This document shows, piece after piece, positions 5,010 to 44,879 of a stretch of DNA of 64,000 nucleotides. Position 1 is the first letter of the stretch, and each line of letters begins with the position of its first letter. The notes beneath the pieces are model-generated. The model had not been told where the DNA came from and did no database searches. It saw only the letters and a program-made list of their open reading frames with translations. Made by a program: the position numbers and the translations under genes. Origin of the DNA: Planctomycetota bacterium (GTDB lineage: Bacteria; Planctomycetota; UBA11346); contig JBBRLJ010000029.1 in NCBI GenBank assembly GCA_038231435.1, positions 1-64,000 of the forward strand, in the 5' to 3' direction.

Positions 5010-5014
5010 GAATG

Positions 5015-15913: not shown

Positions 15914-16750
15914 ATGGGTACAGATGCATCCTGGGACGCATGGCTGGGCGGTCTCGCCGATCCCAGCCGCCGGTTGGACGTCCAGGGCTTCGGGCGGGTC
16001 CACGCCGAGCACTGGGACATGGGCCGCCGCGTACTACCCGAGCACATGTTGCACTTCGTGCTGGCTGGTGGCCATGTGGGAACCGTTGGCGAAGCGGGTG
16101 GCACGCGGAGCGACGAGCTGCGCACCCGCCGCCACTCGCTTGTGTGGATCCCGCCCGGCATCCGCCAGGAGTTGCGCAAGAACCGGGAGCGGGTGTTCTC
16201 GAAATTCTATATCCGTTTCACTGTCGCGGGGCTCGCGCACCCGCCGGTGGAACCGCGCGTCAGGCACGATCTCGCCGAGGCGCTCCCCCTCTTCACCAGG
16301 CTCTACGACGAATGCAGTGCCCAACTGCCGGGCCGCGAACATTCCATCCGCGCGCTGCTGGTGCTGATCTTCGGCGAGTGGCGACGCGCTTCACGCAGCC
16401 ATGACGCCCTCCTCGACGAGCGGCAGCGCGAACGCCTGCTGGCGCGCATCGACCGGGATCCGGCAACGCGGCTGCATCCGGCGACCTTGGCGCGCGAGCT
16501 CAGCATGGCGCCGACGTGGTTTTCCCGCCTCTTCCGCCGGACCTTCGGCGCGGCGCCGCGCGTCTGGCTGGTGCGCCACCGCATCCAGCTCGCCGCGCAG
16601 CGGCTGCTCGAGATCCCATCGCCGGTCAGCGTGGTCGCTGGGGAATTCGGTTACCCGGACGTGTTCCTATTCAGCCGTCAATTCAAGGCGGTGATGGGCA
16701 TGAGCCCGCTCGCATGGCGCCGGCTTCAGTCCCGGGATCGGCGACGGTAG
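15914..16750 (+). CDS. AraC-family transcriptional regulator, divergent from the sulfatase
   Basis: Cupin-like N-terminus; LARELSMAPTWFSRLFRRTFG...FGYPDVFLFSRQFKAVMGMSP; start uncertain (15875 or 15914). Confidence 0.9.
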   Translation: MGTDASWDAWLGGLADPSRRLDVQGFGRVHAEHWDMGRRVLPEHMLHFVLAGGHVGTVGEAGGTRSDELRTRRHSLVWIPPGIRQELRKNRERVFSKFYIRFTVAGLAHPPVEPRVRHDLAEALPLFTRLYDECSAQLPGREHSIRALLVLIFGEWRRASRSHDALLDERQRERLLARIDRDPATRLHPATLARELSMAPTWFSRLFRRTFGAAPRVWLVRHRIQLAAQRLLEIPSPVSVVAGEFGYPDVFLFSRQFKAVMGMSPLAWRRLQSRDRRR

Positions 16751-18861
16751 CCGATACCGGCGAGTGCCAAACCCAGCGACGCGGCGACGCCGACACCACA
16801 GTTGGACTTTCCACTACCGCCAGTGCCGCTGGCGCCAGACGAACCGCTTCCAGTGCCCGTACCGCCCGCGCTTGTAGTTCCCGTACCTGTACTCGTGCCG
16901 GTACCAGCCGCCGCCGTAGTGAAGGTGCTGTCACCGGAAATGAGCAGATTGCCTGCGGCGTCGCGTGAGCGCACCCGGTAATGGTAGAGCGTCCCCGCCG
17001 CCAGCCCGCCGAGCGTGCGGCTATGGCTGGTGACCATGCCCGCCGCCAGCGCCGTGCTGCTGCCGTAAGTGGTGGAGAGGCCGAAGTCGACCTGGGTGTC
17101 CGAGCCCTCGTTGGTGGTCCATGCGATGGTGGCGCCGGATGACGTGACCCCGCTGCTGGCGATCGCGCTCGCCACCGGAGGGGTGGTGTCGGCGATGATG
17201 GTGAAGGTGCGGGTGGCTGATGTACCGCCGCCAGGCGCCGCGATCACGACCGCCAGGCTCGGAGATCCGGGGCTGGAGAGATAGGCTGCTGGAACGGTCA
17301 CGGTGAGCTGGGTGGCGGTGGCTGTCACCGCGGGCAGGTTCGTTTGCCCGCTCCACGAGACCAGCGATCCCGCGATGAAGCCGCTACCGGTGAGCGTGAG
17401 CGTGAACGAGCCGCTGTTCTGCACCGCGGTGCCGGGATTGATCGAGGCCAAAGACGGCGCGGGATTGCCCGCGCCGCCGGACTGCACGGTGATCACCACC
17501 GCGTCGAACGCGGGACAATGCACGCCATCGCTGGCCTTGAGCATCACGGTATAGGTGCCAGCGGCGCTGAAGGTGGCGGTGGTCGAAGTCGACGACGCGC
17601 CCCCGAAGCTCATTGTGCCGGGCTGAGTCGTGAATGGGTAGACGTACCAGAGAGTGGTCAATCCACTGCCGGTGACCGTACCGGCGAGCGAAGCACCAGC
17701 GGCAAGCGTGACCGTCTGGTCGGCGCCCGCATCCGCAGTGGGCGCCCCAGCCGAACGCGGACCGGCGTTGGCAGCGGTGGCATCGATGACCTCGAAGTTG
17801 TTGATGTCGCAGAAGCCGCTGAGGGCGCCGGTGGCGAGATGGTCGAAGCAGTTCGCTGGCCAGCGATCATCAGGGCACGCCGAGATCGAGAAGAACGAAC
17901 CGTTGTCGGCGACGATCGCACCGTACTTCTTCAGCCCCAGCGCGATGGCTGTCTCCTCTTTCGTCCACGATGCGGGGATGGCGAATGACGACTTGAGGCG
18001 CAGGCGCTGACCCATCGCGGGCACGTCCACTAGCGACGTCGACCCCGCCTGGTGCGATGCCGGGTAGATGTAGGCCTGGCGCGAACGCTTGACCACGATG
18101 CGCATGGCGTGCTCGATCATGCCGCGTTCGGCCTCGTCGTAGCGTACCAGCGCCGGAAACATCGGCAGGCCCGCCGCATCGCCGGAGGTCCAGCCGGCCG
18201 GACGCGCAGTATTGGCGACCAGACTGAATTTTGCTCCGTTGGATGCCTGCCACGCGGGCGTGAGCGTGGTCAGCTGCGTCGTCCAGGTCTCCCAGATAGA
18301 ACCCACGCCGGGCATGACGATGATCGAGTGACGATCCCCGCCGTCGCCATTGATGTCCTGCTGCCACTGCGCGTTGCTCAAGCCTGGCTGCTCCGACGGC
18401 CAGGTCTCGACCGGCATGACCGACGGCACTGGCCACAGGCCCCAGTTGGCGTTGCCGGGATCCAGGTCGTCGGACTCGCTCGCGTAGTTGAAGAAGGCGA
18501 TGTCGATCTTCGGCTGCGTGTCAGGCACCAGCACGTAGTTCATCTCCTTGAACACCACCAAGCGCTGGCGGTTCGCGTTCACCACGTCGGCGCGGATGTT
18601 GGCGATCATGGCACCCGAGTTGGCGGCGACGGGCCGTCCGGTGATGTCCTCGTTCCAGGCGCTGTCGCGCGGCATGATCTGCATGGCCGAAACCACCGCG
18701 TCGGCGGCGCCGGTATTGAACAGGATGGGCGCCGATACCGTCGGCTGGGTACCGAGGATGCGACCATCGTGGTTGATGCGCTCGGCGCCCGCGGCGCCGC
18801 CGGCAAGAGCCGCGAGAGCGGGAACGAGCAGCGCTGGGATGAGTCGTGCGAGCATGGTCAT
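16726..18861 (-). CDS. Secreted/surface protein: unrecognised 'WTSxDAAGLP' domain + PKD/IPT-like Ig domains + FN3 + Gly/Ser/Thr linker + C-terminal anchor-like tail
   Basis: Signal peptide; N-domain paralogous to 18892-19962; ADAGADQTV, PSLASINP, GTLYHYRVRSRDAAGN; tail KSNCGVGVAASLGLALAGIGYRRRSRD. Confidence 0.85.
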   Translation of the reverse strand: MTMLARLIPALLVPALAALAGGAAGAERINHDGRILGTQPTVSAPILFNTGAADAVVSAMQIMPRDSAWNEDITGRPVAANSGAMIANIRADVVNANRQRLVVFKEMNYVLVPDTQPKIDIAFFNYASESDDLDPGNANWGLWPVPSVMPVETWPSEQPGLSNAQWQQDINGDGGDRHSIIVMPGVGSIWETWTTQLTTLTPAWQASNGAKFSLVANTARPAGWTSGDAAGLPMFPALVRYDEAERGMIEHAMRIVVKRSRQAYIYPASHQAGSTSLVDVPAMGQRLRLKSSFAIPASWTKEETAIALGLKKYGAIVADNGSFFSISACPDDRWPANCFDHLATGALSGFCDINNFEVIDATAANAGPRSAGAPTADAGADQTVTLAAGASLAGTVTGSGLTTLWYVYPFTTQPGTMSFGGASSTSTTATFSAAGTYTVMLKASDGVHCPAFDAVVITVQSGGAGNPAPSLASINPGTAVQNSGSFTLTLTGSGFIAGSLVSWSGQTNLPAVTATATQLTVTVPAAYLSSPGSPSLAVVIAAPGGGTSATRTFTIIADTTPPVASAIASSGVTSSGATIAWTTNEGSDTQVDFGLSTTYGSSTALAAGMVTSHSRTLGGLAAGTLYHYRVRSRDAAGNLLISGDSTFTTAAAGTGTSTGTGTTSAGGTGTGSGSSGASGTGGSGKSNCGVGVAASLGLALAGIGYRRRSRD

Positions 18862-18891
18862 TCTCTTCCTCCGGAGCCTGCGTTCAGCGGC

Positions 18892-19962
18892 CTATTTCCT
18901 CGTATCCGAGCCAGGCGCGCGCGGGCCTTCGTGTTCCCCGGTGGGAACCACGACTTCGAAATCCGAACCCTTCAGTTGGCGTAGCGCCTCGAGACCCTGG
19001 ATGCGCTCGTCCGGCGCCACCGAGATGCGCCAATCACCGCCGTTGTCGGCCACGAACATGCCATGGGTCTTGAGCGCCTGGGCGATGGCGCGCGCGTGCT
19101 TGGGGAAACCATCGATCGCCACGGTCGCCTTGAGACGGAAACGCTCGCCCATGCGCGGCGCCGCGGCATCGGTGGTATGCCCGGCCTGGTGGGTGGCTGG
19201 ATAGACGTAGGACTTCCGCGAGGACTTGACGGTGAAGCGCAGGGCGTGATCGATCCTGCCGAGCTCGCACTCGTCGTAGCGCACGATCGCCGGGAAGATC
19301 GGCAATCCGGCGGCGTCGGACGACGTCCAGCCCGCCGGCCGCATCTGGTTCGACGAGAGATCGAAGGTCGCCTCGCACGCCGCCTGCCAGCCGCTGTCGA
19401 CGCGCCTGGCCTGGTAGAACTCGTAGAGCTTGGCGGCGAACGGGTCGACGACGATCAGATGGCGGTCGCCATCGCCGTTGCGTTGAACATTGTCGAGCGT
19501 CCCGCCATCGAGCGGCCAGCCTTCGATGGGAGCGTTTGCTGGAACCGGAAACGGCCCGGCGTCGGATTCACCGGGATAGGATACCATCGCCACCGGCACC
19601 GTGGCCTGGCGAGCCGGCACGATGACGAAGGCCATGTCCGAATTCCACGCCAGGTGGCCGCCCTCCCCGACATGGGCGACGATGCGCGCCGAGTCGGGGT
19701 GGAGCGGGCGCTTGGAGATGTCCTCGTGCCACGCGCTGGTCTTGGGGAAGATCTGCATCCCGGACAGGAGCCGGTCCGCCTGCGGCGTGTTGAAGAGGAT
19801 CGGTTGCTTCACCGATTCCTTCTCCCCCGGCAGCTTCGCCGGACCGGTGACAGCATGGTCCGACGCGATCAGCGGCGTGGACGCCATGGTGAGTTGGATC
19901 GCGATCAGCAGCGTTACCTGCGGCACGAGATGGAGCGCGGAGGTCCGAGGCGAATCGGTCAT
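18892..19962 (-). CDS. Secreted protein consisting of the same unrecognised 'WTSxDAAGLP' domain
   Basis: N-terminal hydrophobic stretch; shares PILFNT, SAWxEDI, GDRH, RPAGWTSxDAAGLPxFPA, YxYPAxHQAG, ADNG with 16726-18861; ATGA overlap with upstream gene. Confidence 0.85.
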   Translation of the reverse strand: MTDSPRTSALHLVPQVTLLIAIQLTMASTPLIASDHAVTGPAKLPGEKESVKQPILFNTPQADRLLSGMQIFPKTSAWHEDISKRPLHPDSARIVAHVGEGGHLAWNSDMAFVIVPARQATVPVAMVSYPGESDAGPFPVPANAPIEGWPLDGGTLDNVQRNGDGDRHLIVVDPFAAKLYEFYQARRVDSGWQAACEATFDLSSNQMRPAGWTSSDAAGLPIFPAIVRYDECELGRIDHALRFTVKSSRKSYVYPATHQAGHTTDAAAPRMGERFRLKATVAIDGFPKHARAIAQALKTHGMFVADNGGDWRISVAPDERIQGLEALRQLKGSDFEVVVPTGEHEGPRAPGSDTRK

Positions 19963-21428
19963 TGGCCACCTTGCTCAGGCATGGGTACTGGCTCGGGCAC
20001 GCGGATCCGCGCGTCGGCGATATCGATGACGCCGCCAGGCATGACATAGAATGCCACGGCGCCTGGTCGAGGAGCCGCCGCGGCACCCGGGAGGCGCGGC
20101 AGTTCGACGCCACCCGCGGTGCAATGCAGCTCAGCGCCGTGCTGGGTCAGGCTGACGGCTATCCAGTCGCCCACGCCAGCGGGGATCTCGAAGAACCAGT
20201 TGTAAGTGCCGACCTGGAGTTCGGCGTGCTCGACTCTACCGATGCGCAGGCGGCAGGTCAGCTCGAGATCGAGCAGGTCGCGCGTGCCCAGCAAGCGCGC
20301 CGCGCCGGTCTTGGTGCCCACGCCATGGACGACGCCACCATCCTCGCTCCAGGCGCCATGCTGCTGCACCCAGCCCTCGAGCGCGGCGGCTGGAAACAGC
20401 GGCAGCCACGGGCCCATGACCTGGACGGATGCGGGGACACGCATGGCGGACGTGCGTGGAGTGGCGGCGGGAATCGCCGCCGTGGCCACCACTGGATTGC
20501 GGATGGGAGTGGAGATGGGAGTGGAGATGGGAGTAGCGCTGAACGACTCTCCGTTCGCCACCAGCGCGCTCTCGCCGGAGTGGACCGCGATCGTCAGCCC
20601 GTCGCTCGAACGCGTCATGCGCACGTCTCCGTGCTCGAGCTCCAACCGGGTGCGCGGACCGGCCGGGGATAGTGACGTGGACAATGCGAAGCGAGTGCCG
20701 ATGACCTCGATCGAGGCGTTCGTCGTGGTCAGCACGAATGGACGGCCAATGGGCTGTGGGGCGACTTCGGCATGCAGAGTGCCGATGTCGAGCCGCAGGC
20801 GTTTGCCAGCCTGGCCCGGGAGCACGGTCGCGCTCGCGCCGGAGGCCAGTTCCACCTGGCTGCCGTCCGCGTAGCCGATCAGCACGTCGCCGGTGGCGAT
20901 GACGCGATCACCCGCGTCGAGCTGAGAGCCCTCCATCGCCGGGACCACAGCCCGGACACTTCCGGTAGGCCGCTCGATGGAGGCGCCGGCGCCGGCTCGC
21001 GCGATCCGGCACTCGCCGGCACTGGCCACCCTCGCTGGTTCGCGCGCGATGAACCAGACATAACCTCCGATGGCGATCAGCACCGCTGCCGCAGCGGCCA
21101 CGAGCGGCAGACGCGATCCTCTCGCCGAACGCGCGGACCGTGGACGCGTGCGCGCCGGCAGCGAGCGCTCGACCGCGCGTACGAACGCCGAGGATTTGCC
21201 CTGGGCGTCAAGGCGTTCGTCGACGCTGCGGGCGAAGTCCTCTCCGCCCGCAGCGTCGAGCGCCTGCCCGAGCAGGCCGGCGAACGACAGCAGTTCGCGG
21301 GCGCGCGCCGAGTCGTCGCCGTCTCCGCGCAGCAGTCGCGCAAGCTCGATCGCGCCAGCGGCATCGAGCGAGCCGTCGAGGTAGGTCTCGATCTGGTGCT
21401 CGGTCGGCGTGATCTGCGCGCTACTCAT
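19959..21428 (-). CDS. FecR-type anti-sigma factor with C-terminal DUF1080/ConA-like domain
   Basis: N-terminal helical domain (IETYLDGSL), TM LVAAAAAVLIAIGGYVWF, FecR motif TTNASIEVIGTRF, C-terminal WLPLF...LEGW...GAW..DGGV. Confidence 0.85.
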   Translation of the reverse strand: MSSAQITPTEHQIETYLDGSLDAAGAIELARLLRGDGDDSARARELLSFAGLLGQALDAAGGEDFARSVDERLDAQGKSSAFVRAVERSLPARTRPRSARSARGSRLPLVAAAAAVLIAIGGYVWFIAREPARVASAGECRIARAGAGASIERPTGSVRAVVPAMEGSQLDAGDRVIATGDVLIGYADGSQVELASGASATVLPGQAGKRLRLDIGTLHAEVAPQPIGRPFVLTTTNASIEVIGTRFALSTSLSPAGPRTRLELEHGDVRMTRSSDGLTIAVHSGESALVANGESFSATPISTPISTPIRNPVVATAAIPAATPRTSAMRVPASVQVMGPWLPLFPAAALEGWVQQHGAWSEDGGVVHGVGTKTGAARLLGTRDLLDLELTCRLRIGRVEHAELQVGTYNWFFEIPAGVGDWIAVSLTQHGAELHCTAGGVELPRLPGAAAAPRPGAVAFYVMPGGVIDIADARIRVPEPVPMPEQGGQ

Positions 21429-21435
21429 GGCGAGG

Positions 21436-21984
21436 TCATGGCGAGGTGCCCAGCCGCGCGGCGACGCACTTCATCAACGCCGCCTTCAGGCGCAGGAGCA
21501 TCATCGACACGCCGTTCGGGCTCTTGCCGAGGGCAGTGGCGATCTCCTGCACCGCGACCTCGTCGTGGTAGCGCATGGCGAGCAGCCGTCGCTGGGCGGC
21601 ATCGAGGGCGTCGAGGCAGATACGCAGCGCCGTCAGCTTGCGCTCGGCGCCGTCGTCGTCGCTTGCTGCCTCGCGCTCGATCAGCGCTTCGTCCACCAGC
21701 GCCAATTCGCGCCGCCGCGTCGGCAGGCGGTCGCGCAGGAATCTGTTCACGCGGTTGCGGCAGATGGTGCGCAGCCAAGGCCCGAACTCGCGCTGGGGAT
21801 CGAAGCGCGCCAGGCCCTTCCAAGCATCGATGAAGGCTTCCTGGACCACGTCGTGGACGTCGTCGCGACTCGGCAGGGACAGCGCCACCAACGCGCGCAG
21901 CCGCGCCTGGTGCGCCCGCACCAGGCCCGCGAAGGCCTCGCGATCGCCTGCAATCGCCGCTTGGACCATTGACGCCTCGTCCAA
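21436..21984 (-). CDS. ECF sigma-70 factor
   Basis: GDREAFAGLV, DVHDVVQEAF, FGPWLRTICRN (region 2); VQEIATALGKSPNGVSMMLLR (region 4). Confidence 0.93.
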   Translation of the reverse strand: MDEASMVQAAIAGDREAFAGLVRAHQARLRALVALSLPSRDDVHDVVQEAFIDAWKGLARFDPQREFGPWLRTICRNRVNRFLRDRLPTRRRELALVDEALIEREAASDDDGAERKLTALRICLDALDAAQRRLLAMRYHDEVAVQEIATALGKSPNGVSMMLLRLKAALMKCVAARLGTSP

Positions 21985-22173
21985 TGGAAACCCTCCGCTG
22001 GACCATATCCGCGATGGGCTTGGATCTCACCGACTTTCCCTGTCCCGTCCTCCGAGCGTGCCCCTCTCGACGCCGTGGCCATGCCTGGCAGCGAAGAGCG
22101 AGCGAGGGACGCCGGATCGGGTCCCGGAGCGTCTAGGGGCTGCGCCACCCGCCATGGCCCTTAGGATACGACG

Positions 22174-24321
22174 ATGCCCCCCTCTCCATCGCCATCGGCT
22201 GCCTCGGTCAACGCTGATCCCCGCCCCCTGCACGGGATCCCCTTCCTGGCCGGCGCCTCGGCGGCCGATCCCACGGGCTGGGGTGACGCCGGCCTGCACA
22301 TCGCCGCGTGGAGCGAGGACGGCCCCGACGCGACCCCCTCCAGCGAGTTCTCCACCGAGGCGCGCGTCGCCTGGACCGAGAGCGGCATCGCCGTGCTGGT
22401 GCGCATGCGCTCCGGGGTGCCGTGGCATGAAGCCGCCGACAAGCACAATGCCTTCGAAGCGGATTCGCTCGAGATCTTCCTGCGCCCCGGTTCCTCCAGC
22501 GGCTCCACCACCTCCGTCGCAGCATCACGGGTCATGGTGCAGGCAGTGATCTCGCCGGGCATGGCCTCTGACCAGGGCGCGGCGCGCTCTGCGGTCTGGG
22601 ACCATCGGCAACCGGCAGCGGACTGGTCGGGTATCCCGACCGCGATCACGGTGACCCGCACGAAGTTCCCGGACGGGTGCGTGATCGCGGCACTCATGCC
22701 ATTGGCCCAGGTGCGAGCGACCAGCGGGCGCGGGGTGGTCGTCGAATTCCGCCTTTTGATCAACAAGATTCTGCCGGGGAAAGGCCGCAGGCAGTTCAGC
22801 TGGCGCGCTCCCTCTGGCGATGAATTCCATCGTCTCGAATTCGCCGACCATGCCGGAGCTGCGGTGACCTCCTCAGCCTGGGCCGTCCTCGACGGGTACG
22901 ATCGCCTGGCGATCGCCGCGGTAGTTCCGGTCGTGTGGATGGGGCGCAGCGCAATCGTGACGCAGGCCGGAGTGGTCCTCGCCTCCTCTTCCTTCCAGGC
23001 GTCGACGGGCGATTCACGCACGGCGGTACTTTCCACCCATACGCTGGCCTCGGCGCTGGGGGATGCGAGCCATCCGGTGGAGATCGCGTCCAACGGCGTG
23101 CTGCTGGGCACGAATCGGGTTCAGGATCCGCGCCTGAAGGCGCGGCGCGATCTCGAACGCTCGAGCATGCGCGGCTTCGCCCGCACCGAGCCGGGTGCAT
23201 TCGATCCGCTGACGCGCGTGCGCCCGCGTGTGCCGGTGCTGCTGCGCCGCGGCGCCCTTCCAGCGGCGATCGCTCCTGATGCGGCGATGCTGACGCTGGC
23301 CGGAGCCGGCACGATGCGCACGCGCTGGTTCCAACGTGATGGCACCGAAACGACCGAAGCCATCACCCCTGGCCGCCATGGCGCGGTGATCGCGCTGACC
23401 ATGGACGATGGTAGCGAACTGCGCTTCCATCGCACCGCTGTGCTTCTACCCGAGGGCGCTAAACAGGCATCCGATGCCGTCCTCGAGATCGCCGCGGCTG
23501 CGGTCGGAGACGTCCAGGCCCGATGCTTCCAATCCGCACTGGGAAGAGCGATTGTCGGAGACGCCGCCGTCGACCGCGAATTCGCCTTGCTGGCCGCGGC
23601 GGTTGACGACGCCCGTCGCGATGGCGGCCCCGTTCGCCCCGATTCCCGCGACCAGGCGTGGTGGCATGCGCAGCGCAGGCGTCTCGGCACCGCCACGCGC
23701 TATCCGCGTTTCCGCCTGTTGCCCGACGGCTACGAAGGCGATCAATCACTGCGCTGGCCCGCGATCATCTATCTGCATGGATCGGGCGGTGAACTGCCGC
23801 GCGACTATACGCCATTCTCCAAGCGCTCCGCGAGCACGGATCTCATCGCCTGGGCCACCGGCCGCGCCCTGCCCTTCGCGATCTACGCGCTGCAGGCGGA
23901 TCGTGCCTGGGAACCATCGGCGGTGCTCGACGCCATCGACGAGATCCTCGCCGAGGACCGCGTCGATCCCGATCGCATCTGCATCATGGGCTTCAGCATG
24001 GGCGGCATGGGCAGCTGGAACTGCGCGGTCGATCATCCAGAACGCTGGTCGTGCGTCGTGCCGCTCGGCGGCCGGGGCGACCGCAGCGACGAGGCCGCGC
24101 GAGTGGTCGGCCTGCCGGTGTGGTCATTCAACGGCGACATCGACACGTCTACCACGCTCGCCGATGCGCGACACATGGTGGATGCGATCCGCGCCGCCGG
24201 AGGCGACCCACGGTTCACGGTGCTCCAGGGGGTCGACCACGGCGGCACGCAGCACGCCAGCTTCTCGACCTCGGGCCTGTGGGAGTGGATCGCGCAGCAG
24301 CGCCGCGTGGACGCGCACTGA
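22174..24321 (+). CDS. Multidomain protein: N-terminal CBM9/DOMON-like region and C-terminal alpha/beta-hydrolase (predicted esterase/peptidase)
   Basis: ARVAWTESGIAV..DSLEIF (CBM9-like); IIYLHGSG, VDPDRI..GFSMGG, NGDID, DH. Confidence 0.75.
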   Translation: MPPSPSPSAASVNADPRPLHGIPFLAGASAADPTGWGDAGLHIAAWSEDGPDATPSSEFSTEARVAWTESGIAVLVRMRSGVPWHEAADKHNAFEADSLEIFLRPGSSSGSTTSVAASRVMVQAVISPGMASDQGAARSAVWDHRQPAADWSGIPTAITVTRTKFPDGCVIAALMPLAQVRATSGRGVVVEFRLLINKILPGKGRRQFSWRAPSGDEFHRLEFADHAGAAVTSSAWAVLDGYDRLAIAAVVPVVWMGRSAIVTQAGVVLASSSFQASTGDSRTAVLSTHTLASALGDASHPVEIASNGVLLGTNRVQDPRLKARRDLERSSMRGFARTEPGAFDPLTRVRPRVPVLLRRGALPAAIAPDAAMLTLAGAGTMRTRWFQRDGTETTEAITPGRHGAVIALTMDDGSELRFHRTAVLLPEGAKQASDAVLEIAAAAVGDVQARCFQSALGRAIVGDAAVDREFALLAAAVDDARRDGGPVRPDSRDQAWWHAQRRRLGTATRYPRFRLLPDGYEGDQSLRWPAIIYLHGSGGELPRDYTPFSKRSASTDLIAWATGRALPFAIYALQADRAWEPSAVLDAIDEILAEDRVDPDRICIMGFSMGGMGSWNCAVDHPERWSCVVPLGGRGDRSDEAARVVGLPVWSFNGDIDTSTTLADARHMVDAIRAAGGDPRFTVLQGVDHGGTQHASFSTSGLWEWIAQQRRVDAH

Positions 24322-24395
24322 GGCTGTCCAGATTTCAGGAGTTCCGGGCAGGCTGTAGCCACCGCCGGGATGATCACGAGCACACGGAGTACACG

Positions 24396-25856
24396 ATGCG
24401 ATCACGGCTTCCGACCCGCCTTCACACCTGCATGGTGAGCCTGCTCGCCGCATGCTCCGATGTCGGCGCCGCCGACTGGGCCTACTCCTGGAACCCCGCC
24501 CATGGAGACAAGCCACCGCAAGCAGAGATCTGTCCCTTCAAGTATGGCAAGCAGTGGGCCTACGCGATCGAGATCGACGATGGTCCGAAATGGGCACGCG
24601 GCTTCGCCGTCCCCCTGCTGGCGGGCCATGGCTTCACCGACGCGCCTCCCGGAGTCGCGGGCGGCAAGCGCCTGCCATTCGTCGGCGGCATCGCCGTGAT
24701 CGTCGCCTCGACGGGAGCGAACGACGCCACCATCGACTGGAACGATCTCGCCGCGATGAGAACCGCCGGCTGGGGCGTGCTGAACCACAGCCTGACCCAC
24801 TCTGGCCGTTCCTGGGGCGACGAAGCCGGACGCCTGTCAGACGCGCAGGTGCGAGAAGACGCCTATTGGAGCCAGGCCCTGCTCGCGCACGGACTCGATG
24901 GGCGCGCGCCGACAGCGGCGGTCTACGCCAACGGCTATACCGACTACAACCGCGGCGGCGCCCTTGCGGCCGTCGGCATCCGCATCGCGACCCGGGTCGG
25001 CGGATCGAGCCCGAACGACATCGTCGGGCAGCATGCCGGCATCCAGTGGATGGATTACACGCGCAACTATCTGGATGAAGGCACCTGGGTGAACGACGCC
25101 CACGGCGACGCGCTCGCCGGAATCCCCGGCATCGACGGCGCCGGCGGCGAACGCGGGCGCTTCATCATCGACTTCACCCACGACATCGACCGTAGCGACG
25201 CGTCGGCTAATCAGCAGCGCTGGACCAAGCGCCTGTCCACCATCGAGGAGCGTTGGGGCGCCAAGGGAACGGACACCGTGTGGTGCGCGCCGACCGGCGA
25301 GATCGCCGACTATGCGCGCGGCCGCGAGGCCGCGAAGGTCGCGACCGTGCTGTCGGCGGGCAAGCAGACGCTCACGCTGAGCCTGCCGGACGGTGTGCCC
25401 GGCAGCGCCTTCACCGTGCGCATCACCGGGATCGGCCCCACGGCGGAGCTGGCCGCGCCCCGGGGCGGGGCACTCTACCGCGCCGCGGACGGCAGCGTCT
25501 ACATCACCACTCCCGTGGTCGGCCAGCCCGGCTCACCGGCCCCGACTCCGGCGATCTCGTGCCTCTATGACGGCCCGCCCGGGGACATCGATCTCAAGGG
25601 CGAGCATGCGATCGCGGGCATCATGGTGCACATCGCCGGAGATCTTCCGGAAGGCTTCAGCTACCATCCCGCGCTGAAGACGGCGTCGGGCATGCAGCCG
25701 CTCGCGGAGCCCGCCAAGAAGGCCGGCTGGTTCGTCAGCGGCCAGCTACTGCCCCTGATACCGAATGGAGCAGCGGTCAACGCCACAGGGGTGCACATCG
25801 ACGCGCTCACGCCCATCCCCCGCATCATCGTGTGGGGAACCGCCGCCGCGCCCTGA
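24396..25856 (+). CDS. Secreted polysaccharide deacetylase (NodB/CE4-like) domain protein
   Basis: RBS GGAG then ATG 24396; IEIDDG and NHSLTH motifs; FTH; TVWCAP..EIADY. Confidence 0.7.
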   Translation: MRSRLPTRLHTCMVSLLAACSDVGAADWAYSWNPAHGDKPPQAEICPFKYGKQWAYAIEIDDGPKWARGFAVPLLAGHGFTDAPPGVAGGKRLPFVGGIAVIVASTGANDATIDWNDLAAMRTAGWGVLNHSLTHSGRSWGDEAGRLSDAQVREDAYWSQALLAHGLDGRAPTAAVYANGYTDYNRGGALAAVGIRIATRVGGSSPNDIVGQHAGIQWMDYTRNYLDEGTWVNDAHGDALAGIPGIDGAGGERGRFIIDFTHDIDRSDASANQQRWTKRLSTIEERWGAKGTDTVWCAPTGEIADYARGREAAKVATVLSAGKQTLTLSLPDGVPGSAFTVRITGIGPTAELAAPRGGALYRAADGSVYITTPVVGQPGSPAPTPAISCLYDGPPGDIDLKGEHAIAGIMVHIAGDLPEGFSYHPALKTASGMQPLAEPAKKAGWFVSGQLLPLIPNGAAVNATGVHIDALTPIPRIIVWGTAAAP

Positions 25857-25876
25857 AGACTGGCGGCGGCGGCGGG

Positions 25877-27549: not shown

Positions 27550-27625
27550 GGCTGTCTCCTAGGTGCATGTCGAATGACCTGCGTTATGTGCTGAACCATA
27601 CCGTGATACTGTAGACTTCCGCAAG

Positions 27626-27658
27626 TCTTTCACGCTATCGATCCGGCTTTTCTTGCTG
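27626..27658 (-). promoter_or_regulatory. Putative AraC-type tandem binding site upstream of the PhyH-SDR operon
   Basis: Minus strand AGCAAGAAA and AGCGTGAAA are 21 bp apart. Confidence 0.3.
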
Positions 27659-27680
27659 TAGCGCCGCTGTAGGCTGCGCC

Positions 27681-28565: not shown

Positions 28566-28605
28566 GCCGGCGCTCCAGGCCATCGGGATGACCGTGGCCA
28601 TCGGC

Positions 28606-34211: not shown

Positions 34212-34218
34212 ACCAGCC

Positions 34219-35517: not shown

Positions 35518-35749
35518 CAGTACCTCGCGTTAGGCCGCACGGTGTCGTCCATCGTCCGAGGTGTCAACGATCAGCGTGCGGATAGCGGTGGATTGACGAA
35601 CCTCACGACGCTTCTTCGGCTCTCGATCCCGCCGTACTCCGCACGACGTACCCCTGGAATTGTCTGCCGCACATCATTAGCCAATCAGAGCGCGTGTCCC
35701 TGGGCCTCCGATTGCATCCGTCCACGCCCTGGCACCGTGACCTCCCGCG

Positions 35750-37591: not shown

Positions 37592-39420
37592 GCGACCTCG
37601 AGCACGAGGAGGAGCTGGCACGCGCGCGGCTAGACCGGCGCATGGCCGGGCGCATGGCATCCCTCCTGCGTCCGGTGCTGGGCCGGGTGGTGCTGGTGGT
37701 TGTCGTCGAGATGGTGCTGGTGGTCTCGGTGTTCGCTCGGCCGTGGTTCCTGCGCGACGTGATCGACAATGGCCTGATCCGCGATGGCACCGGCTGGCGC
37801 GTCGACGTCCACGTTGTGCTGTGGGCGATGCTCGGCCTTGCGGGGGTGTGGTTGGTGCGCTTCGGACTCGGCGGGCTCGGCCAGTTCCTCTCCGGGACCG
37901 TCGCCATCCGCGTGCTGAACGACCTGCGTGCTCGCGTCTTCACCCACGTGCAGGCGCTGTCGGTGCGCTACTTCGACCGCACCAAGGCCGGACGCATCAT
38001 CGCCAGGGCCGACCGCGACGTCGACAGCCTGGAACCCGCTGTGATCAACGGCCCACCGGAGCTGCTGGGAATGGCCTTGCGTTGCATCGGCGCCGGCGCG
38101 CTGCTGTACGCCATCAGCCCACGTCTGTTCTGGATGCTCTCACCGCTCCTGCCACTGCTCGCGCTAGCGATGGCGCTGTTCCAACGCGCCGGGGCGCGCG
38201 TCTGGCGCGACATCGCCGAGGCCAAGAGTCGCGTCACCGCTCACCTGTGCGAAGGCATCGCCGGCGTGCGCGTCATCAAGCAGACCGGCTTCGAGTCCGC
38301 CAACCACGCGCGCTACGACATCTTGCTCGGCGGCCTCGATCGCGCCGCCATACGTGGATCATGGGCGTGGGGCTGGTTCCAGCCGTATTCGGCCGTGCTC
38401 TTCCATGCTGGGCTCGCGCTGCTGCTGGTCGAGGGTGGGCGCGAGCTCGCGCTCGGTCAGCTCAGTGTCGGGCAGCTCGCGCAGGCGATGTTCTACATCT
38501 TCGTGTTCCTCGGGCCGCTCCAGGAACTCGGCGACCTTTACGAGAAGATCGCCACCGCTACTGCCGCAGCGCAGCGCATCTTCCTGCTGCTCGACACGCC
38601 GATCGAGATCGTCGACCGGCCAGGCGCGCGCGTTCTGCCGACGGTGTCCGGCGCGGTGGCATTCGAGCACGTGCGTTTCGCCTACGACCCCGCCGGACCC
38701 ACGGTGATCCACGACTTCAGTCTCGAGGTTCCCGCGGGCGAGACGCTGGCGATCGTCGGGGCCACCGGCCATGGCAAGAGCACGCTGGTGCAGCTGCTGA
38801 CGCGATTCTACGAGCCGCAGGCCGGGCGCATCACGCTCGACGGGCACGACATCAACAGTCTCGCCCAGGACGATCTCAGGCGCCACGTCGCGGTGGTGCT
38901 ACAGGACAACATCCTCTTCTCGGGCAGCATCCTCGACAACCTGCGCCTCGCCGCTCCGCATGCCTCCGACGAAGAGCTGATCGCCGCGGTGCGCGCGCTG
39001 GGCGCCGACGAAGTGCTTGAGCGACTGCCCTCCGGCTACCAGACCGCGGTGGGGCCGGGCGGTGGGAACCTCAGCCACGGTCAGCGCCAGCTGGTGTGCC
39101 TGGTGCGCGCCTATCTCGCGGATCCGCGCGTGCTGGTGCTCGACGAGGCGACCTCGGCGGTGGACATCCACACCGAGGGCCGCCTGCGCCGCGCCCTGCG
39201 TCGGCTCAGCGTTGGGCGCACCGCGATCGTCATCGCGCATCGCCTGACCACTATCCGCGACGCCGACCGCATCGTGGTGATCGAGCGCGGGACCCTGGTC
39301 GAGCATGGGACCCACGTCCAGCTGATGGCGGCGGGCGGGAGATACGCGGCCTTGTACCAGGCCTACGAGCGGGAACAGGATGGCGACCGGGGCCAGAACG
39401 GCAGCACTGGGCTCGGCTGA
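37588..39420 (+). CDS. ABC exporter half-transporter (TMD+NBD), partner subunit
   Basis: ATGA overlap; GATGHGKS, LSHGQRQ, LDEATS, IAHRL. Confidence 0.92.
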   Translation: MSDLEHEEELARARLDRRMAGRMASLLRPVLGRVVLVVVVEMVLVVSVFARPWFLRDVIDNGLIRDGTGWRVDVHVVLWAMLGLAGVWLVRFGLGGLGQFLSGTVAIRVLNDLRARVFTHVQALSVRYFDRTKAGRIIARADRDVDSLEPAVINGPPELLGMALRCIGAGALLYAISPRLFWMLSPLLPLLALAMALFQRAGARVWRDIAEAKSRVTAHLCEGIAGVRVIKQTGFESANHARYDILLGGLDRAAIRGSWAWGWFQPYSAVLFHAGLALLLVEGGRELALGQLSVGQLAQAMFYIFVFLGPLQELGDLYEKIATATAAAQRIFLLLDTPIEIVDRPGARVLPTVSGAVAFEHVRFAYDPAGPTVIHDFSLEVPAGETLAIVGATGHGKSTLVQLLTRFYEPQAGRITLDGHDINSLAQDDLRRHVAVVLQDNILFSGSILDNLRLAAPHASDEELIAAVRALGADEVLERLPSGYQTAVGPGGGNLSHGQRQLVCLVRAYLADPRVLVLDEATSAVDIHTEGRLRRALRRLSVGRTAIVIAHRLTTIRDADRIVVIERGTLVEHGTHVQLMAAGGRYAALYQAYEREQDGDRGQNGSTGLG

Positions 39421-39598
39421 ACGGAGAACCGCCATCGAGCGCGCCAGGTGATACGACGTCCGGTGCGTCGTGTGGTGCGTCGTGTGATGTGGAGCGGTGA
39501 AAATGTGACGCGGAATCGTTGCGCATGATGCAGCGGCACGCGGCTCCTGGAATGTCGAGCGCGGGTGCTGAACATCACGGCACCGTGGAGTCACTCCC

Positions 39599-42133
39599 AT
39601 GAGCCACCTCCGTGCCGCCGCGTCCGTCCTGTTCATCATCGCCCTGACGACGCTCGTCTGCACGCGCGGATGCGGCGCCGACCTCGCGGTCGTGCCGAAC
39701 GCCGACGACTCCGGCAACGGCAGCGCCGAGCGTCCGTTCGCCTCGCTCGCCAAGGCACTCGCGCGCGCCGGCTCCGGTGACACCGTCTACCTGGCGCGCG
39801 GAGCCGTGTACCGCGAGACCGGCCTGGTGTTCAAGGGCGGAGTCACCGTCAAAGGCGCGGGCTCGGGCGACAAGCCGCCGCCGCTGATCACCGCCAGCGT
39901 CCGCATCGAGGGCTTCAAGCCGTGGGCGAAGAACGCCAAGGTGCTCGCCGCTCCCTGCGAGCGCAAGGCGCTGGAGTGCTATGTCGACGGCGCCTTCCAG
40001 GTGCTCGCGCGCTTCCCGAATCTCAATCTCGAGAAGCAGGCCTGGCTGCGCGCGGCCAAGGGCTCGACGCCCGACGTCCTGCTCTGCCCCGAGCGCGCGC
40101 AGGCCCCAGGCGCGGCGAGCGGCCGCTGGAAGGGCGCGCAGGTACGGTGGCGACGTTGGAGCTGGTGGTGGGAGACGCGTCCGATCGGCGAGGATGACGG
40201 CTCGGGCAAGCTCGCGCTCGGCGCCGACGGACGCTTCCACGACGGCTTCACCGGCGTCGGCTCGGCGTTCTACGTCGACAACTGCCTGGCCGAGCTCGAC
40301 GCGCCCGGTGAATGGTTCTGGGACGAAGCGGCGAAGATGCTCTACGTCTATCCGCCAGCGGGATCGGATCCCGCAAAGTTGGTGATCGAGGCGGTGCTGG
40401 ATCCCGCTGGCTGCACCATCGGTGGCGGCATGCTCGACGGTGTAGGCTTCGCGCGTTTCGCCAGCGTGGCCCTCAAGCTCGAGGGCAAGTCGCTGCTGAC
40501 AGGCTGCCTTTTCCAGGACGTCGGTGGCAACGCCATCGTCTCGACCTGGGGCTCGTCGGGAACGCGCATCTCCGGCTGCGCCTTCCGCGACGTGCGCGAT
40601 CTGGCGATCTCATGGAACGAGGATCCCAAGGGCGCCGGCGGCACGGTGATCGAGCGCAACACCTTTGACCGCATCGGCGATCGTCCCGGCTACGGCGGCA
40701 GCGGCTCGTGGCATGGCGCGGGCATCATCGTCTTCAATGGCAAGGGCGTAATGGTCAGGCTCAACCGCTTCAGCGACTGCGGCTACGATGGCGTGATCCT
40801 CAACACCCCTGGCTGCACCGTCGAGCGCAATGTCCTAGTGCGCTGCATGAGCCAGATGAACGACGGCGCGGCCATCGGCGTCTGCGCCAACGGCTCGATC
40901 GTGCGCGAGAACATCGTCCTCGACACCATCGGCAATCTCGAGACCTCGCAGCCGTTCTCGCCGCTCGGCCACGGCATCTGGACCGAGTTCCTCGGCGACC
41001 TCCACGATTCGCAACTGATCGGCAATACCGTATTCGGTTCGGGCGGCTTCGGCATCTACCTGCCGAACAACCGCTCCTGCCAGGTGCGCGAGAACGTGTT
41101 GATGGGCAATCGCCGCGACGGGCTCCATCTCGGCGGCTACGAGAAGGACAAGGGCCCGCAGAAGCACGTGATCGCCGACAATGTGCTGGTGGCGCTCGAT
41201 CCGTCACGCCGGATTCCCGGGCCGGTGAACGGCTCCGAACCGGAACAGCCACGCGGATTGGGCTTCGAGCCCGGAATCGATTACGGGACGCTCAGCGGCA
41301 CCGTCTTCGTGGTTTCCGGCACGGCCCCGGCGATCGGCGGCAAGCAATCGTACGACGATCCCGCAGCCTGGGCCAAGGACGAGCACTGGGGCGATCCCGC
41401 GGCCAAGCTGCAGAAGGCGACGCCCTTGCTGTTGATCAACGACACCGAGCAGGCGCACGATTTCGTTCCGCCGTCAGGCAGCTGGACGGACCTCGCCGGC
41501 AAGCCGATTGGCAAAGCCGTGACGGTGGCCCCCTACCGCAGCGCGGTGCTGCTGCGGCGCGGCGCCGACGGCGGCGCGCTGCCACCCTACCTGACCGCTT
41601 CCGGGATCGACTACCGGGCGCCGTCGCTCGCCTCTGCGACCGAGATCGCGACCGCGAAGGCCGCGAAGGCCACCAAGCCGAGCGCGAGCGCCTCGGCGGC
41701 GATCCACGAGGACGCCGAGGCCAGGCATTCGTATGTCTCCACCAAGCCGAAGTCTGAAGCCTGGGCCCGGTATGTCGGCTTGCTGCGCGATCGTGTATCG
41801 GCCCTGTCCATGGGGCGGAGCCCGGCGCAATTCGAATACAGCGCCATGAAGCAGCGCGTGAGCGTGATCGCGGTGCAAGGCGACCAGGCGACACTGAAGC
41901 TCGGCGACGAGGGCGGGCAGATCACCGCCGCGCTCTTCGGCGCCAAGCTGACCGTCACCGACGCCTGCCGCCTGGCGCTCGACGCGCAGCGGGCGGATCA
42001 GCCCGAGCAGTACGCGCTCGCCGCATTCTTCGCCCGCTGTGCCGACGACGGCATGGCCTACGAGCGCTGCCTGGCCCACGCTGGAGCCCTTGCCGCCGAC
42101 GTCGAATCCGGATTCAGCGATCAGCCGAACTGA
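39599..42133 (+). CDS. Secreted right-handed parallel beta-helix protein (pectate-lyase-like fold) with C-terminal domain of unknown function
   Basis: Signal peptide; GNGSAERPFASL, LDAPGEWF, repeated IExN/VRxN/IGN coils, DGAAI, HGIW. Confidence 0.82.
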   Translation: MSHLRAAASVLFIIALTTLVCTRGCGADLAVVPNADDSGNGSAERPFASLAKALARAGSGDTVYLARGAVYRETGLVFKGGVTVKGAGSGDKPPPLITASVRIEGFKPWAKNAKVLAAPCERKALECYVDGAFQVLARFPNLNLEKQAWLRAAKGSTPDVLLCPERAQAPGAASGRWKGAQVRWRRWSWWWETRPIGEDDGSGKLALGADGRFHDGFTGVGSAFYVDNCLAELDAPGEWFWDEAAKMLYVYPPAGSDPAKLVIEAVLDPAGCTIGGGMLDGVGFARFASVALKLEGKSLLTGCLFQDVGGNAIVSTWGSSGTRISGCAFRDVRDLAISWNEDPKGAGGTVIERNTFDRIGDRPGYGGSGSWHGAGIIVFNGKGVMVRLNRFSDCGYDGVILNTPGCTVERNVLVRCMSQMNDGAAIGVCANGSIVRENIVLDTIGNLETSQPFSPLGHGIWTEFLGDLHDSQLIGNTVFGSGGFGIYLPNNRSCQVRENVLMGNRRDGLHLGGYEKDKGPQKHVIADNVLVALDPSRRIPGPVNGSEPEQPRGLGFEPGIDYGTLSGTVFVVSGTAPAIGGKQSYDDPAAWAKDEHWGDPAAKLQKATPLLLINDTEQAHDFVPPSGSWTDLAGKPIGKAVTVAPYRSAVLLRRGADGGALPPYLTASGIDYRAPSLASATEIATAKAAKATKPSASASAAIHEDAEARHSYVSTKPKSEAWARYVGLLRDRVSALSMGRSPAQFEYSAMKQRVSVIAVQGDQATLKLGDEGGQITAALFGAKLTVTDACRLALDAQRADQPEQYALAAFFARCADDGMAYERCLAHAGALAADVESGFSDQPN

Positions 42134-42143
42134 ACCAAAGACA

Positions 42144-42175
42144 TCGGCGGGCACACTCGCCCGCCGACGATTTCG
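42144..42175. repeat. Hairpin related to part of the 4547-5009 element; probable terminator between convergent genes
   Basis: TCGGCGGGC-N6-GCCCGCCGA stem; CCGCCGACGATTTCG is identical to 4920-4934. Confidence 0.5.
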
Positions 42176-42187
42176 TCGCGATCGCGG

Positions 42188-42565
42188 TCAGTTCTTGCCT
42201 TCATCCTTGGCAGCCTTGGCGGCTTCGATCGCGAGCGCGCGGCGGCCTTCGCGCTCGGTGTAGACCACGTGCAGGCGATCGCCGACCTTGAGCTTGGCGA
42301 TCGCTTCGAGCATCTTCTCGGGCTTTCCCTCGCGGAAGTAGGCACGGTACTCGTTCTCGGCGTTGGTGCCGTCTTCCTTGAGGGTGAAGGATTTCTTCTC
42401 GGCGTTCACTGCGGTCACCGTGCCGGTGGCCTTCGACTTAACGATCTCCTCCGCGCCCTTCTCGTGCTCCTTCTTGGGATGATCGCCAGCGCCGCCCTCG
42501 GCGGCCGAGATGGCGCCGCAAGCGAGCAGCGCGATGAGGGAAGCGGTGATGTGGCGGATGCTCAT
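42188..42565 (-). CDS. Small secreted OB-fold-like protein
   Basis: Signal peptide MSIRHITASLIALLACGAISA; GTVTAVN..KSFTL and LKVGDRLHVVY pattern. Confidence 0.7.
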   Translation of the reverse strand: MSIRHITASLIALLACGAISAAEGGAGDHPKKEHEKGAEEIVKSKATGTVTAVNAEKKSFTLKEDGTNAENEYRAYFREGKPEKMLEAIAKLKVGDRLHVVYTEREGRRALAIEAAKAAKDEGKN

Positions 42566-42810
42566 GGATGATCCTCGGTTGGGGTCTGGTGCGAAGGATT
42601 GGGGTACGAGAGCCTCTGTCGCAACCGGCTCGGACTGTACACCCGAAGTCGCAACTGGTCGGAATCGACGGCCGCCTGCCCGCCATCGTTCACCGCGCCA
42701 CCGGTCTGGATGGCGTAAGTCCATTCAATACGTGGCTGTTCCGGAGCCTTTGCCCCTCTCTTCCGCAGCGGCTGGATGGCCTGTACAGTCGCGGCCAAGT
42801 CGACATACCC

Positions 42811-43380
42811 ATGCACAGCATGGACGAACGCTCACCGCTCACCGCGCCGCCGGCCGACGACGCCCCGATGCGCACCCTGCTCGAGGAGCGCGGGCTGCTC
42901 CTTGGCTACATCAACGTCATCGTCCGCGACCTGCACGCCGCCGAGGATATCCTGCAGGAGGCCCTGATGCTCGCGCTCCGCCAGCGCTTCGCCGATGTCG
43001 GGCATGCCCAGGCCTGGATCCGCGTGACCGCGCGCAACCTCGCGCTCAATGAGGGCCGCCGCCGACAGCGCCGCGCCAAGCCGCTCTCCGACGACATCCT
43101 GGAGCTGCTCGAACCGGCGTGGGATGAGGAAGGCGATGGACCCGCGCACGGCGAGCGCCTGGCCGCGCTGCGCGCCTGCTGCGAGCGCCTGTCCGACGCC
43201 GGCAAGAGGCTGATCGACCTGCGCTACCACCGCAAGCTCGACGGCGCCGGCATGGCGGCAGCGCTCGGCCGCCCGCTGAACACCGTCTATGTCGGACTCA
43301 GCCGCGTATACCGTCGACTGTCCACCTGCATCGAACAGCGCATGCAGCAGTCGGCGCAGCCGCGCATGGGCGAGTCATGA
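42811..43380 (+). CDS. ECF sigma-70 factor
   Basis: RDLHAAEDILQE, AWIRVTARN, MAAALGRPLNTVYVGLSR; ATGA overlap with the anti-sigma gene. Confidence 0.9.
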   Translation: MHSMDERSPLTAPPADDAPMRTLLEERGLLLGYINVIVRDLHAAEDILQEALMLALRQRFADVGHAQAWIRVTARNLALNEGRRRQRRAKPLSDDILELLEPAWDEEGDGPAHGERLAALRACCERLSDAGKRLIDLRYHRKLDGAGMAAALGRPLNTVYVGLSRVYRRLSTCIEQRMQQSAQPRMGES

Positions 43381-44879
43381 GCGGACTCCCCGACGACCTC
43401 GCCGTGCGCTATCTCGAAGGCGCCGCCTCGGCCGACGATGTCGCGGCGCTGGAGAAGCACCTGCGCGCCGACGAGCAGGCGCGCCGCTCCTTCGTGCGCC
43501 TGTCGCACCTGCAGGCGCTGATCTCGGAACTGGCGCGCGAACCCTTGCTGTCGGCCCGGCCGACACCGCGCTGGCGCGTGATCGCGTTCACCGCGACAGC
43601 CGCTGCCGCCGCGATGCTGGTCATCGGCGTATGGCGAGGCTTCGCCATCGGGGCCAGGGACACCGGTCCCACCGTCTCCGGGTCCTCGGGGGAGATCGCA
43701 TGGACCCGCAATGGGCGCGGCCTGCGCCTGGTCGACGACGCGCGGCTCGCGCCCGGCGACCGTCTGGCGCTCGCGGGCGACGCCCATCTGCGCATCGTAT
43801 GGCCCGACGGGGCATTGGTCGCCGTCGATCCCGACAGCGATGTGGCGATCGGGGTCGATGCGTCGCGGCTGCGGCTCGATCGCGGCATGGTGCAGGCGAT
43901 CATCACCCACGACCCCGCGCGACCCTTCACGATCGCGACCGCCGACGGCCTCATCACCGACCTCGGCACGGTCTTCGTCGTCCGGCGCGGTGCCACGAGG
44001 ACCCGGGTAGAGGTCGCCCAGGGCACGGTGCGTCTGACCACCGGCGGCGAGCATGTCGACGTGCCCGCCGGAGCTCACGCGGTCGCCATCGCCGGCCAGG
44101 CGCCGCGACTGCTGGCGCCGCCTCCGCCTCAGGCCGTGCCGAGCAGCGCCGCAGGCTGGAACGAGCCGCTGCCGCTCCACGCGCGGATGGCGAGACTCCC
44201 CGACGCCCTCGCCGTCGCCACTTGGCGGGTACGGCCCGCGCTGCGGCTGTCGCTGCCTACCGCGGGCGCGGCGATGCGCCCGGTGCGGCACCGTGGCCAG
44301 CCGGGAGCGTTGCTCGGCGATGCCCCGGTTCCCGATCTGCGCGGGCTCGAATACGCGATCGGCGGCGCGCACGACCTCATCCTCGTCGATGCGGTCTCCA
44401 AGCAGGCGTGGGAGCTGAGTGAGCCCGAGGGCGGAGCCGGGGGGATCTCCGCGCGGCGCATGACCCCCATCGCCTTCGACGCGGTGCGCGCACTGCCCGG
44501 ACTCGGTGGCTTGCTGACTCCTCGCGACCTGGAGCGCGGACCGCCGCGCGACGCCCAGTCGCCACACACCGAACATGTGCCGCACGCCCTGGTGGTCGCG
44601 GTGCCGGCAGCTGTCCTTGGCGAGCACGGACTGCGCATCGGCGATCGCATCTGTATCGTCGGCGCCCCGACGCCTGGAAACGGCGTGGCCGGCAGCGTCC
44701 TCGCGGAAGTCCTCGCCAGCCATGGTGCGCGCGTGGTCGCGAGCGAGGGCGCGCCGACGCTGTTCGTCGATCCGCGGCTGTCCGATGAGGTTCGCGCCAG
44801 CCTGACCGCGGCCCTGGCGGAGCTCGCGCCCGCGCTGCGGCGCGTCGAGACGGCGATCGCTGACGATCCGGACCAGTGA
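43377..44879 (+). CDS. FecR-type anti-sigma factor with a C-terminal degenerate 'WTSxDAAGLP' domain
   Basis: RYLEG N-domain, TM AAAAAMLVIGVW, FecR motif TADGLITDLGTVF; C-terminal third aligns colinearly with 18892-19962. Confidence 0.85.
   Translation: MSGLPDDLAVRYLEGAASADDVAALEKHLRADEQARRSFVRLSHLQALISELAREPLLSARPTPRWRVIAFTATAAAAAMLVIGVWRGFAIGARDTGPTVSGSSGEIAWTRNGRGLRLVDDARLAPGDRLALAGDAHLRIVWPDGALVAVDPDSDVAIGVDASRLRLDRGMVQAIITHDPARPFTIATADGLITDLGTVFVVRRGATRTRVEVAQGTVRLTTGGEHVDVPAGAHAVAIAGQAPRLLAPPPPQAVPSSAAGWNEPLPLHARMARLPDALAVATWRVRPALRLSLPTAGAAMRPVRHRGQPGALLGDAPVPDLRGLEYAIGGAHDLILVDAVSKQAWELSEPEGGAGGISARRMTPIAFDAVRALPGLGGLLTPRDLERGPPRDAQSPHTEHVPHALVVAVPAAVLGEHGLRIGDRICIVGAPTPGNGVAGSVLAEVLASHGARVVASEGAPTLFVDPRLSDEVRASLTAALAELAPALRRVETAIADDPDQ

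Follow-up and report, generated by a model that had tools for sequence, protein, structure and literature searches.

A degenerate copy of an uncharacterised domain as the putative glycan-sensing tail of a planctomycetal FecR-type anti-sigma factor

Why does a FecR-type anti-sigma factor end in what appears to be a degenerate copy of a domain that two genes some 24 kb away carry intact? This question is raised by the first 64,000 nucleotides (hereafter the window) of contig JBBRLJ010000029.1 of a Planctomycetota genome (assembly GCA_038231435.1; 5.2 Mb, 88% complete), in which two pairs of an extracytoplasmic function (ECF) sigma factor and a FecR-type anti-sigma factor are encoded: 21436-21984/19959-21428 on the reverse strand and 42811-43380/43377-44879 on the forward strand. 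The domain, which we call X, is common to 18892-19962, 16726-18861 and, in degenerate form, 43377-44879. Comparison with relatives, of which those named are Planctomycetota, leads to a reading in which the tail of 43377-44879 would be an old, non-catalytic periplasmic glycan sensor, swapped in for an OB-like domain and controlling the sigma factor 42811-43380; we give this reading an even chance of being right.

The anti-sigma factor 43377-44879 (+) is a protein of 500 amino acids whose gene lies at +1 of the ECF sigma factor gene 42811-43380 (+) and overlaps its end. Its order, from Pfam matches and hydropathy, is an N-terminal part, a hydrophobic helix from residue 68 that is the one transmembrane helix, a FecR domain at residues 134-219 (PF04773, E 1.2e-13, 51.7 bits against a cut-off of 24), a Pro-rich linker, and the degenerate X domain at 44118-44852 (+), delimited by whole-domain profile scores. 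A full-length FecR model gave the same protein 30.9 bits against a cut-off of 385, and the best match of the sigma factor is TIGR02989, at 100.7 bits against a cut-off of 124.55. The initial annotation had seen the X-like region in the C-terminal third; it is indeed C-terminal, and it fills the C-terminal half, residues 248-492 of 500. That the tail aligns colinearly with X is borne out, with QAVPSSAAGWNEP at 44130, DAPVP at 44319, a block opening HDLILVD at 44370, ALPGLGG at 44490, VPHALVVAV at 44577, LRIGDRI at 44631 and VLAEVL at 44697, all in the same order as in 18892-19962. Misassembly is an unlikely source of the fusion, the FecR/X junction being bridged without differences by single contigs in two runs, both of which are possibly the source of this DNA.

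At about 20% identity, ordinary searches of the anti-sigma factor against X were unconvincing: BLAST against the two X genes of the window gave E values of 0.44 and 2.2, local HMMER gave 0.04-0.1, and hhalign gave 0.023 with a probability of 2%. Because the claim concerns colinearity, whole-profile glocal scoring (global in the model, local in the sequence) was chosen. A profile of 103 X members then scored the tail at z 5.6 (0/3000 shuffles), and at z 5.2 with local-window shuffles (0/3000; 0 and 3 of 3000 by Viterbi). Among 12,000 genome windows sampled from 22,921, the tail ranked tenth before composition correction, and after it had the best z among the 17 top windows. When anti-sigma tails of at least 150 amino acids from this genome and ten relatives were compared (n = 134), this tail stood at z 6.7 and the next at 3.7. 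A profile made without the query from eight X members of a divergent branch, four bacterial (G003, G070, G157, G185) and four from phage, gave z 8.3 (0/1000 shuffles; local E 3.6e-5 as a single comparison), brought the HAL and barrel motifs into register with the tail, and placed this tail at 8.4 among the same 134, with the next at 3.5 and leave-one-out values of 6.9-10.1. Twelve depth-matched profiles of the main subfamily gave z 3.9-6.0, a contrast that alone does not place the copy, as a higher score with a diverse profile also reflects greater sensitivity. The best single relative, out of 311 tried, outscored all shuffles (0/5000), and the copy was not among the matches listed by a default genome-wide hmmsearch with the eight-member profile. 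Overall, the tail is very probably, if remotely, homologous to X over the whole domain, and the profile similarity that the initial annotation anticipated is significant by whole-domain scoring. Searches for relatives of the tail itself, whose empty outcome does not show absence, returned only the tail among 7994 candidates of the protein collection (searched by region), no usable Atlas match, a best E of 0.017 in 60 related genomes, and 327 pattern matches in the metagenome scan, none confirmed; the whole anti-sigma factor found 2 of 7995 candidates in the protein collection.

The family from which this copy derives is large, with 7645 matches among 7999 candidates (7171 representatives at 50% identity), and it is uncharacterised and enzyme-like, as had been proposed at the outset: X has no Pfam, NCBIfam or PDB sequence match, and 30 of 30 X matches in the Atlas were without a common family. 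An N-terminal hydrophobic stretch is present in 224 of 249 Met-starting homologues, compared with 12 in the control window, and X looks to be mostly exported and surface-bound. Among 77 proteins scanned, its fusions include SLH, CWB2, dockerin, cohesin, malectin, LamG, GDSL and SASA esterase domains, the common partners being wall anchors, Ig-like spacers, carbohydrate-binding modules and esterases. A confident model was obtained for 18892-19962 (predicted local distance difference test, pLDDT, 90.8; 298 of 356 residues at 90 or above). Foldseek found no match for it in the PDB; of the 19 top rows of a wider structural aligner, 16 are MltA-type transglycosylases, expansins, cerato-platanins, YuiC, kiwellin or barwin, at 8-16% identity, and the MltA alignment takes in the two ends of the domain but leaves an insert between them (residues 74-341). 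The MltA/RlpA/GH45/expansin group is presumably the one known as the double-psi barrel. These features suggest that X is a glycan-binding or glycan-cleaving surface protein, perhaps a glycan-active enzyme of the MltA/GH45/expansin type.

The fold is also found in phage: five phage models match the X model by Foldseek (E 7e-14 to 2e-10), one of them named a minor tail protein, PHROG 17388 has it, and Gordonia phage minor tail proteins match X weakly in sequence. The phage cases collected are L278-L281 and the BFVD entries A0A411B1R7 and A0A977KNX9, comprising Gordonia minor tail proteins and a Microcystis phage protein; one phage record labels the gene a glycosylhydrolase. A scan of viral contigs with a divergent X member found none.

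In 20 aligned X members from both branches (numbering of 18892-19962), H239, P255, A256, G272 and G301 are invariant (20/20), D166 and D306 are present in 19 of 20 each, and E231 and P141 are nearly invariant too. The copy keeps the equivalents of H239 (His403, in the HAL motif), G235, G272, G301 and P141; it has lost D166, D306, the P255-A256 loop and most of the WTSxDAAG segment, and has Asp at E231. The losses are concentrated on the most conserved, polar invariant positions. The motif losses are as the initial annotation stated, except that the histidine is kept and that acidic residues remain near the lost aspartates. The reading frame is open, with a GC content at third codon positions of 0.84, like other genes.

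Was the copy taken from the X genes of the same window? In a 22-row tree it falls outside the supported clade (99/97) that holds both, on a long branch (2.84) and with odd composition, and approximately unbiased (AU) tests on a 16-row subset rejected it as sister of either window gene (p 0.009 and 0.002), a placement subject to long-branch effects. The copy therefore probably does not derive from either gene, and direct duplication was rejected on these tests. The genome, 88% complete, yielded no X gene belonging to the divergent branch. The link between the two operons that had been suggested is not supported: in addition to the AU tests, the sigma-linked motif described below is missing at the X operon (no site with a 12-base spacer, two mismatches allowed), and the 24-kb closeness of copy and operon may be chance.

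The indication of an exchange comes from orthologues. A search of 47 genomes of the family with the whole anti-sigma factor yielded three close pairs, in each of which the sigma factor is 62-65% identical to 42811-43380 and the anti-sigma factor ends not in X but in about 100 amino acids resembling 42188-42565 (49, 43 and 28% identity). The gene 42188-42565 (-) encodes a small protein with an N-terminal hydrophobic stretch and a domain that is OB-fold-like by eye, with weak matches to CusF and DUF1344. Two of the three orthologous loci have such a gene directly upstream of the sigma gene and in the same orientation, the third showed none within 16 kb, and in the window the gene is divergent. 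That the X tail replaced an OB-like tail, and not the reverse, would follow from three relatives against one, in place of a rooted tree. Sigma-based scans added one close locus of 48 in metagenomes, which ends soon after the sigma gene and in which the other genes had no tblastn match, and three of 14 in genome contigs, all Planctomycetota and not counted as additional orthologues. Further small exported OB-like proteins are encoded at G000:C59:13595-14046 (-) and G000:C32:48034-48693 (-).

A promoter-like motif accompanies these genes. GTACAGT-N11-CGACA stands before the sigma start codon (42783-42805, +) and GTACAGT-N12-CGACA upstream of the OB-fold gene (42617-42640, -), and GTACAGT-N12-[CG]GACA recurs upstream of the OB gene orthologues in L054 and L056 and of the paralogue on C59; the C32 gene (48034-48693) does not have it. 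In 5.2 Mb the pattern has three sites (the sigma gene and two OB genes), compared with 0-1 for five wrong spacers. The sigma factor is thus predicted to be autoregulated, its predicted targets being itself and two OB-like genes, as in relatives. Within 42783-42813 (+), only 5 bases separate the end of the motif from the first ATG of the sigma gene, so that the transcript would be leaderless or nearly so.

Our preferred reading is that the outer input domain has been exchanged in a TonB-independent switch resembling those of the ECF46 group, with the targets likely kept. The tail of 43377-44879 would lie in the periplasm and act as a non-cutting binder of a glycan (a sugar polymer) from the cell envelope or the environment, and binding would lead to the release of the sigma factor 42811-43380, which would then transcribe its own gene and the two OB-fold genes. 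In other anti-sigma systems the sigma factor is released by proteolysis, and the same may apply here.

The idea of such a sensor has precedents in the outer domains of ECF46 and in RsgI6-GH10. ECF46 pairs of Planctomycetes, Proteobacteria and Verrucomicrobia, with glycan enzymes as neighbours, are proposed to sense periplasmic carbohydrates, and their anti-sigma factors carry carbohydrate-type outer domains, typically though not universally LamG (PMC7826278). As described there, that layout shares with ours an anti-sigma factor at +1, one transmembrane helix, a FecR domain and an outer domain; the likeness of the sigma factor is one of layout, as it was compared only with the TIGR02989 model. 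The outer domain differs, being degenerate X here and OB-like in the orthologues (no Laminin_G_3 match was found in 43377-44879, whereas other anti-sigma factors of the family carry LamG), and ECF46 promoters are reported not to be conserved (PMC7826278), whereas a conserved motif precedes the sigma gene here. In the SigI/RsgI systems variable C-terminal modules stand on one scaffold (PMC6852018, PMC4711584), and RsgI6 of Clostridium thermocellum carries a GH10 outer domain, nearly inactive, still polysaccharide-binding and read as a sensor (PMC4711584), that is 57% identical to an enzyme it regulates (PMC4711584, PMC6852018). Here too the anti-sigma factor would have an enzyme-derived outer domain, one that has lost conserved residues; the families differ, however, no match to the RsgI N-terminal domain or sigma-I being listed for the window pair (ECF and FecR instead), and the copy is only about 20% identical to X, with predicted targets that are not X genes. 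FecI/FecR/FecA shares the ECF sigma factor with a co-encoded FecR-domain anti-sigma factor (PF04773 above cut-off) and differs in that an extra C-terminal domain is present here and, as the initial annotation noted, a TonB-dependent receptor is not: none was found on this contig, and the three PF00593 matches of the genome are all on other contigs (C12, C20 and C32). For X itself, E. coli RlpA provides an Asp-to-Ser inactive member of the MltA/GH45 fold class (PMC9712689). Further literature searches returned nothing relevant, and such tails may be described in the supplement of PMC7826278.

Several points weigh against this glycan-sensor reading. With Asp333 and Glu457 of the copy one or two positions away from the lost aspartates, catalysis has likely, though not certainly, been lost. 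Confidence in the model of the copy is only partial (mean pLDDT 58.5; predicted template modelling score, pTM, 0.45), with residues 41-130 at 65-91, residues 143-188 below 50, and confidence confined to the insert region and the last helix; the family alignment supplied for this model was out of register over the barrel, and a fold search with the model matched helices only. The structural match of X is weak, at a best Z of 4.3 (rmsd, root-mean-square deviation, 5.9 A over 180 residues; none at Z 5), with no sequence or Foldseek match and with motifs of its own (GDRH, HAL, PA, ADNG) that set X apart from MltA/GH45/expansin, and a fold shared with MltA-type proteins shows no function. None of the predicted sigma targets is a glycan enzyme. 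The regions upstream of four OB genes served to derive the motif, to which the sigma site was added by eye; the three genome sites are therefore not an independent test, and its independent support is limited to its conservation and the lack of other sites. Finally, no second X-bearing anti-sigma factor was found among 133 other tails, and FecR occurs on 0 of 269 X homologues.

A bolder version would make X an undescribed glycan-cleaving superfamily, with an MltA-like barrel and a new insert, on bacterial surfaces and phage tails, and the locus an ECF circuit rewired by cassette exchange, in which promoter and targets are kept and a dead X enzyme replaces, as input, a copy of the circuit's own target. 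We consider this combination possible but doubtful.

A survey of such tails in the family bears on the likeliest alternative, namely that the tail is an interchangeable folded cap, that the anti-sigma factor answers envelope stress or proteolysis and could be protected by any stable domain, and that descent from X says nothing of the ligand. The survey took 149 FecR matches in ten genomes (140 regions and 20 more, with a few G064 matches left out), giving 152 tails of at least 60 amino acids in 59 clusters. No detectable counterpart among non-FecR open reading frames (ORFs) of the sampled loci exists for 100 of the 152, as a cap would allow, and for 41 the only matches are ORFs of other loci (38 without three artefact targets). 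Eleven, however, match a non-FecR ORF of their own locus, where 1.5 are expected by chance (0/10,000 permutations); these fall in 7 of the 59 clusters, kin not being independent. Beta-helix tails are 35-42% identical to an adjacent exported protein, and one tail is 44% identical to the malectin-type module of a neighbour. Many tails, moreover, are recognisable carbohydrate-binding or enzyme domains, including PA14, LamG, CBM11, NPCBM and beta-helix. The cap is favoured by the unrelated tail tolerated in the orthologues, by small exported proteins as the predicted targets, and by a gene convergent on the anti-sigma gene, 44911-46011 (-), that domain scans identify as a trypsin-like serine protease with an N-terminal hydrophobic stretch; no counterpart of this protease was found in the orthologous anti-sigma loci examined, and a functional link is unproven. 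On balance we judge the cap unlikely, though plausible.

It is decidedly unlikely that the tail is what is left of an old, decaying fusion and neither folds nor senses any more. Its long branch and biased composition, its partly unconfident model and the want of another example would fit decay, but the full domain length, the open frame with its codon-position bias, the structural glycines retained at about 20% identity and the concentration of losses on polar invariant positions tell against it. Sensing of a protein, whether X-family proteins (own or phage tail) or their partner, is quite improbable: in two orthologues the tail copies the exported protein encoded next door, with which it could pair, phage tail proteins contain X, and the branch with phage members gives the copy a better score, whereas this genome yielded no divergent-branch X gene and the X operon has no motif. 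A chance likeness to X, with the tail an expanded OB-fold-like domain or an unrelated fold, is very improbable, for a joint alignment that puts three short blocks on the OB domain and local searches that are not significant at database scale stand against whole-length X profile z of 5.6-8.4 with matching spacing, and an OB-fold origin was rejected on an OB profile E of 0.07 and pairwise z of -1.8 to 2.8 for six OB sequences.

The X operon is the better entry to X function. It comprises the ECF sigma factor 21436-21984 (-; TIGR02989, 136.6 bits, above cut-off), the FecR-type anti-sigma factor 19959-21428 (-; Pfam scan), the stand-alone X protein 18892-19962 (-; 356 amino acids, N-terminal hydrophobic stretch), and 16726-18861 (-; 711 amino acids), in which an intact X domain is followed by PKD, CoaZ repeat and Fn3-like domains and which ends in a Gly-rich, hydrophobic/basic tail. 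The two X copies are 42% identical (E 3e-78). With a z of about 1, the tail of 19959-21428, some 150 amino acids long, is not an X domain. Relatives share it at 39-59% identity; it is beta-rich, without a Pfam match and DUF1080-like by eye. In 13 of the 29 other loci X is directly preceded by an orthologue of 19959-21428, and the order sigma factor, FecR anti-sigma factor, then one or two X genes is seen in 16726-21984 (-) and L019-L043. In L262 of genome G064 a divergent-branch X gene (2406-4700, -) lies close downstream of a FecR anti-sigma gene. Divergent from the X operon, 22174-25856 (+) encodes an alpha/beta hydrolase with a CBM9-like domain and a polysaccharide-deacetylase-like protein. 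The second pair is flanked by an exported beta-helix protein with a weak GH141 insert match (39599-42133, +) and by a GH16-like protein with an agarase-type CBM match (46358-48241, +).

In this genome as a whole our own FecR profile found 20 ORFs, about 17 of them anti-sigma-like, with varied tails. A rule that the tail copies the neighbouring gene fails here by sequence (0/16); two beta-helix tails nevertheless adjoin exported beta-helix proteins, without detectable pairwise similarity, at L119 (731-2392, by Pfam match, with 2968-4656) and L129 (6859-8955, by eye, with 4754-6859). The anti-sigma factors G000:C22:68051-70318 and C40:27548-29734 have in common a tail of about 400 amino acids (37% identical), glycoside hydrolase barrel-like by eye and without a Pfam match, and G000:C32:53344-54870 (+) is a FecR anti-sigma factor apparently in two reading frames, through a frameshift or an assembly error.

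Modular tails have precedents, and if only that part holds, this locus is one more example of the pattern; most of the value lies in the X superfamily and in the orthologue swap. With a confident model and few invariant residues, X is directly testable as a new glycan-active family of bacteria and phage tails, and the degenerate copy marks residues likely needed for catalysis and not for folding. For ECF46, input through the tail is put forward as a proposal only, with no experimental test given there (PMC7826278). Orthologous anti-sigma factors with different tails and a common target motif amount to a natural domain-swap experiment, one that would reveal whether the tail provides the input of FecR-type proteins that lack a TonB partner.

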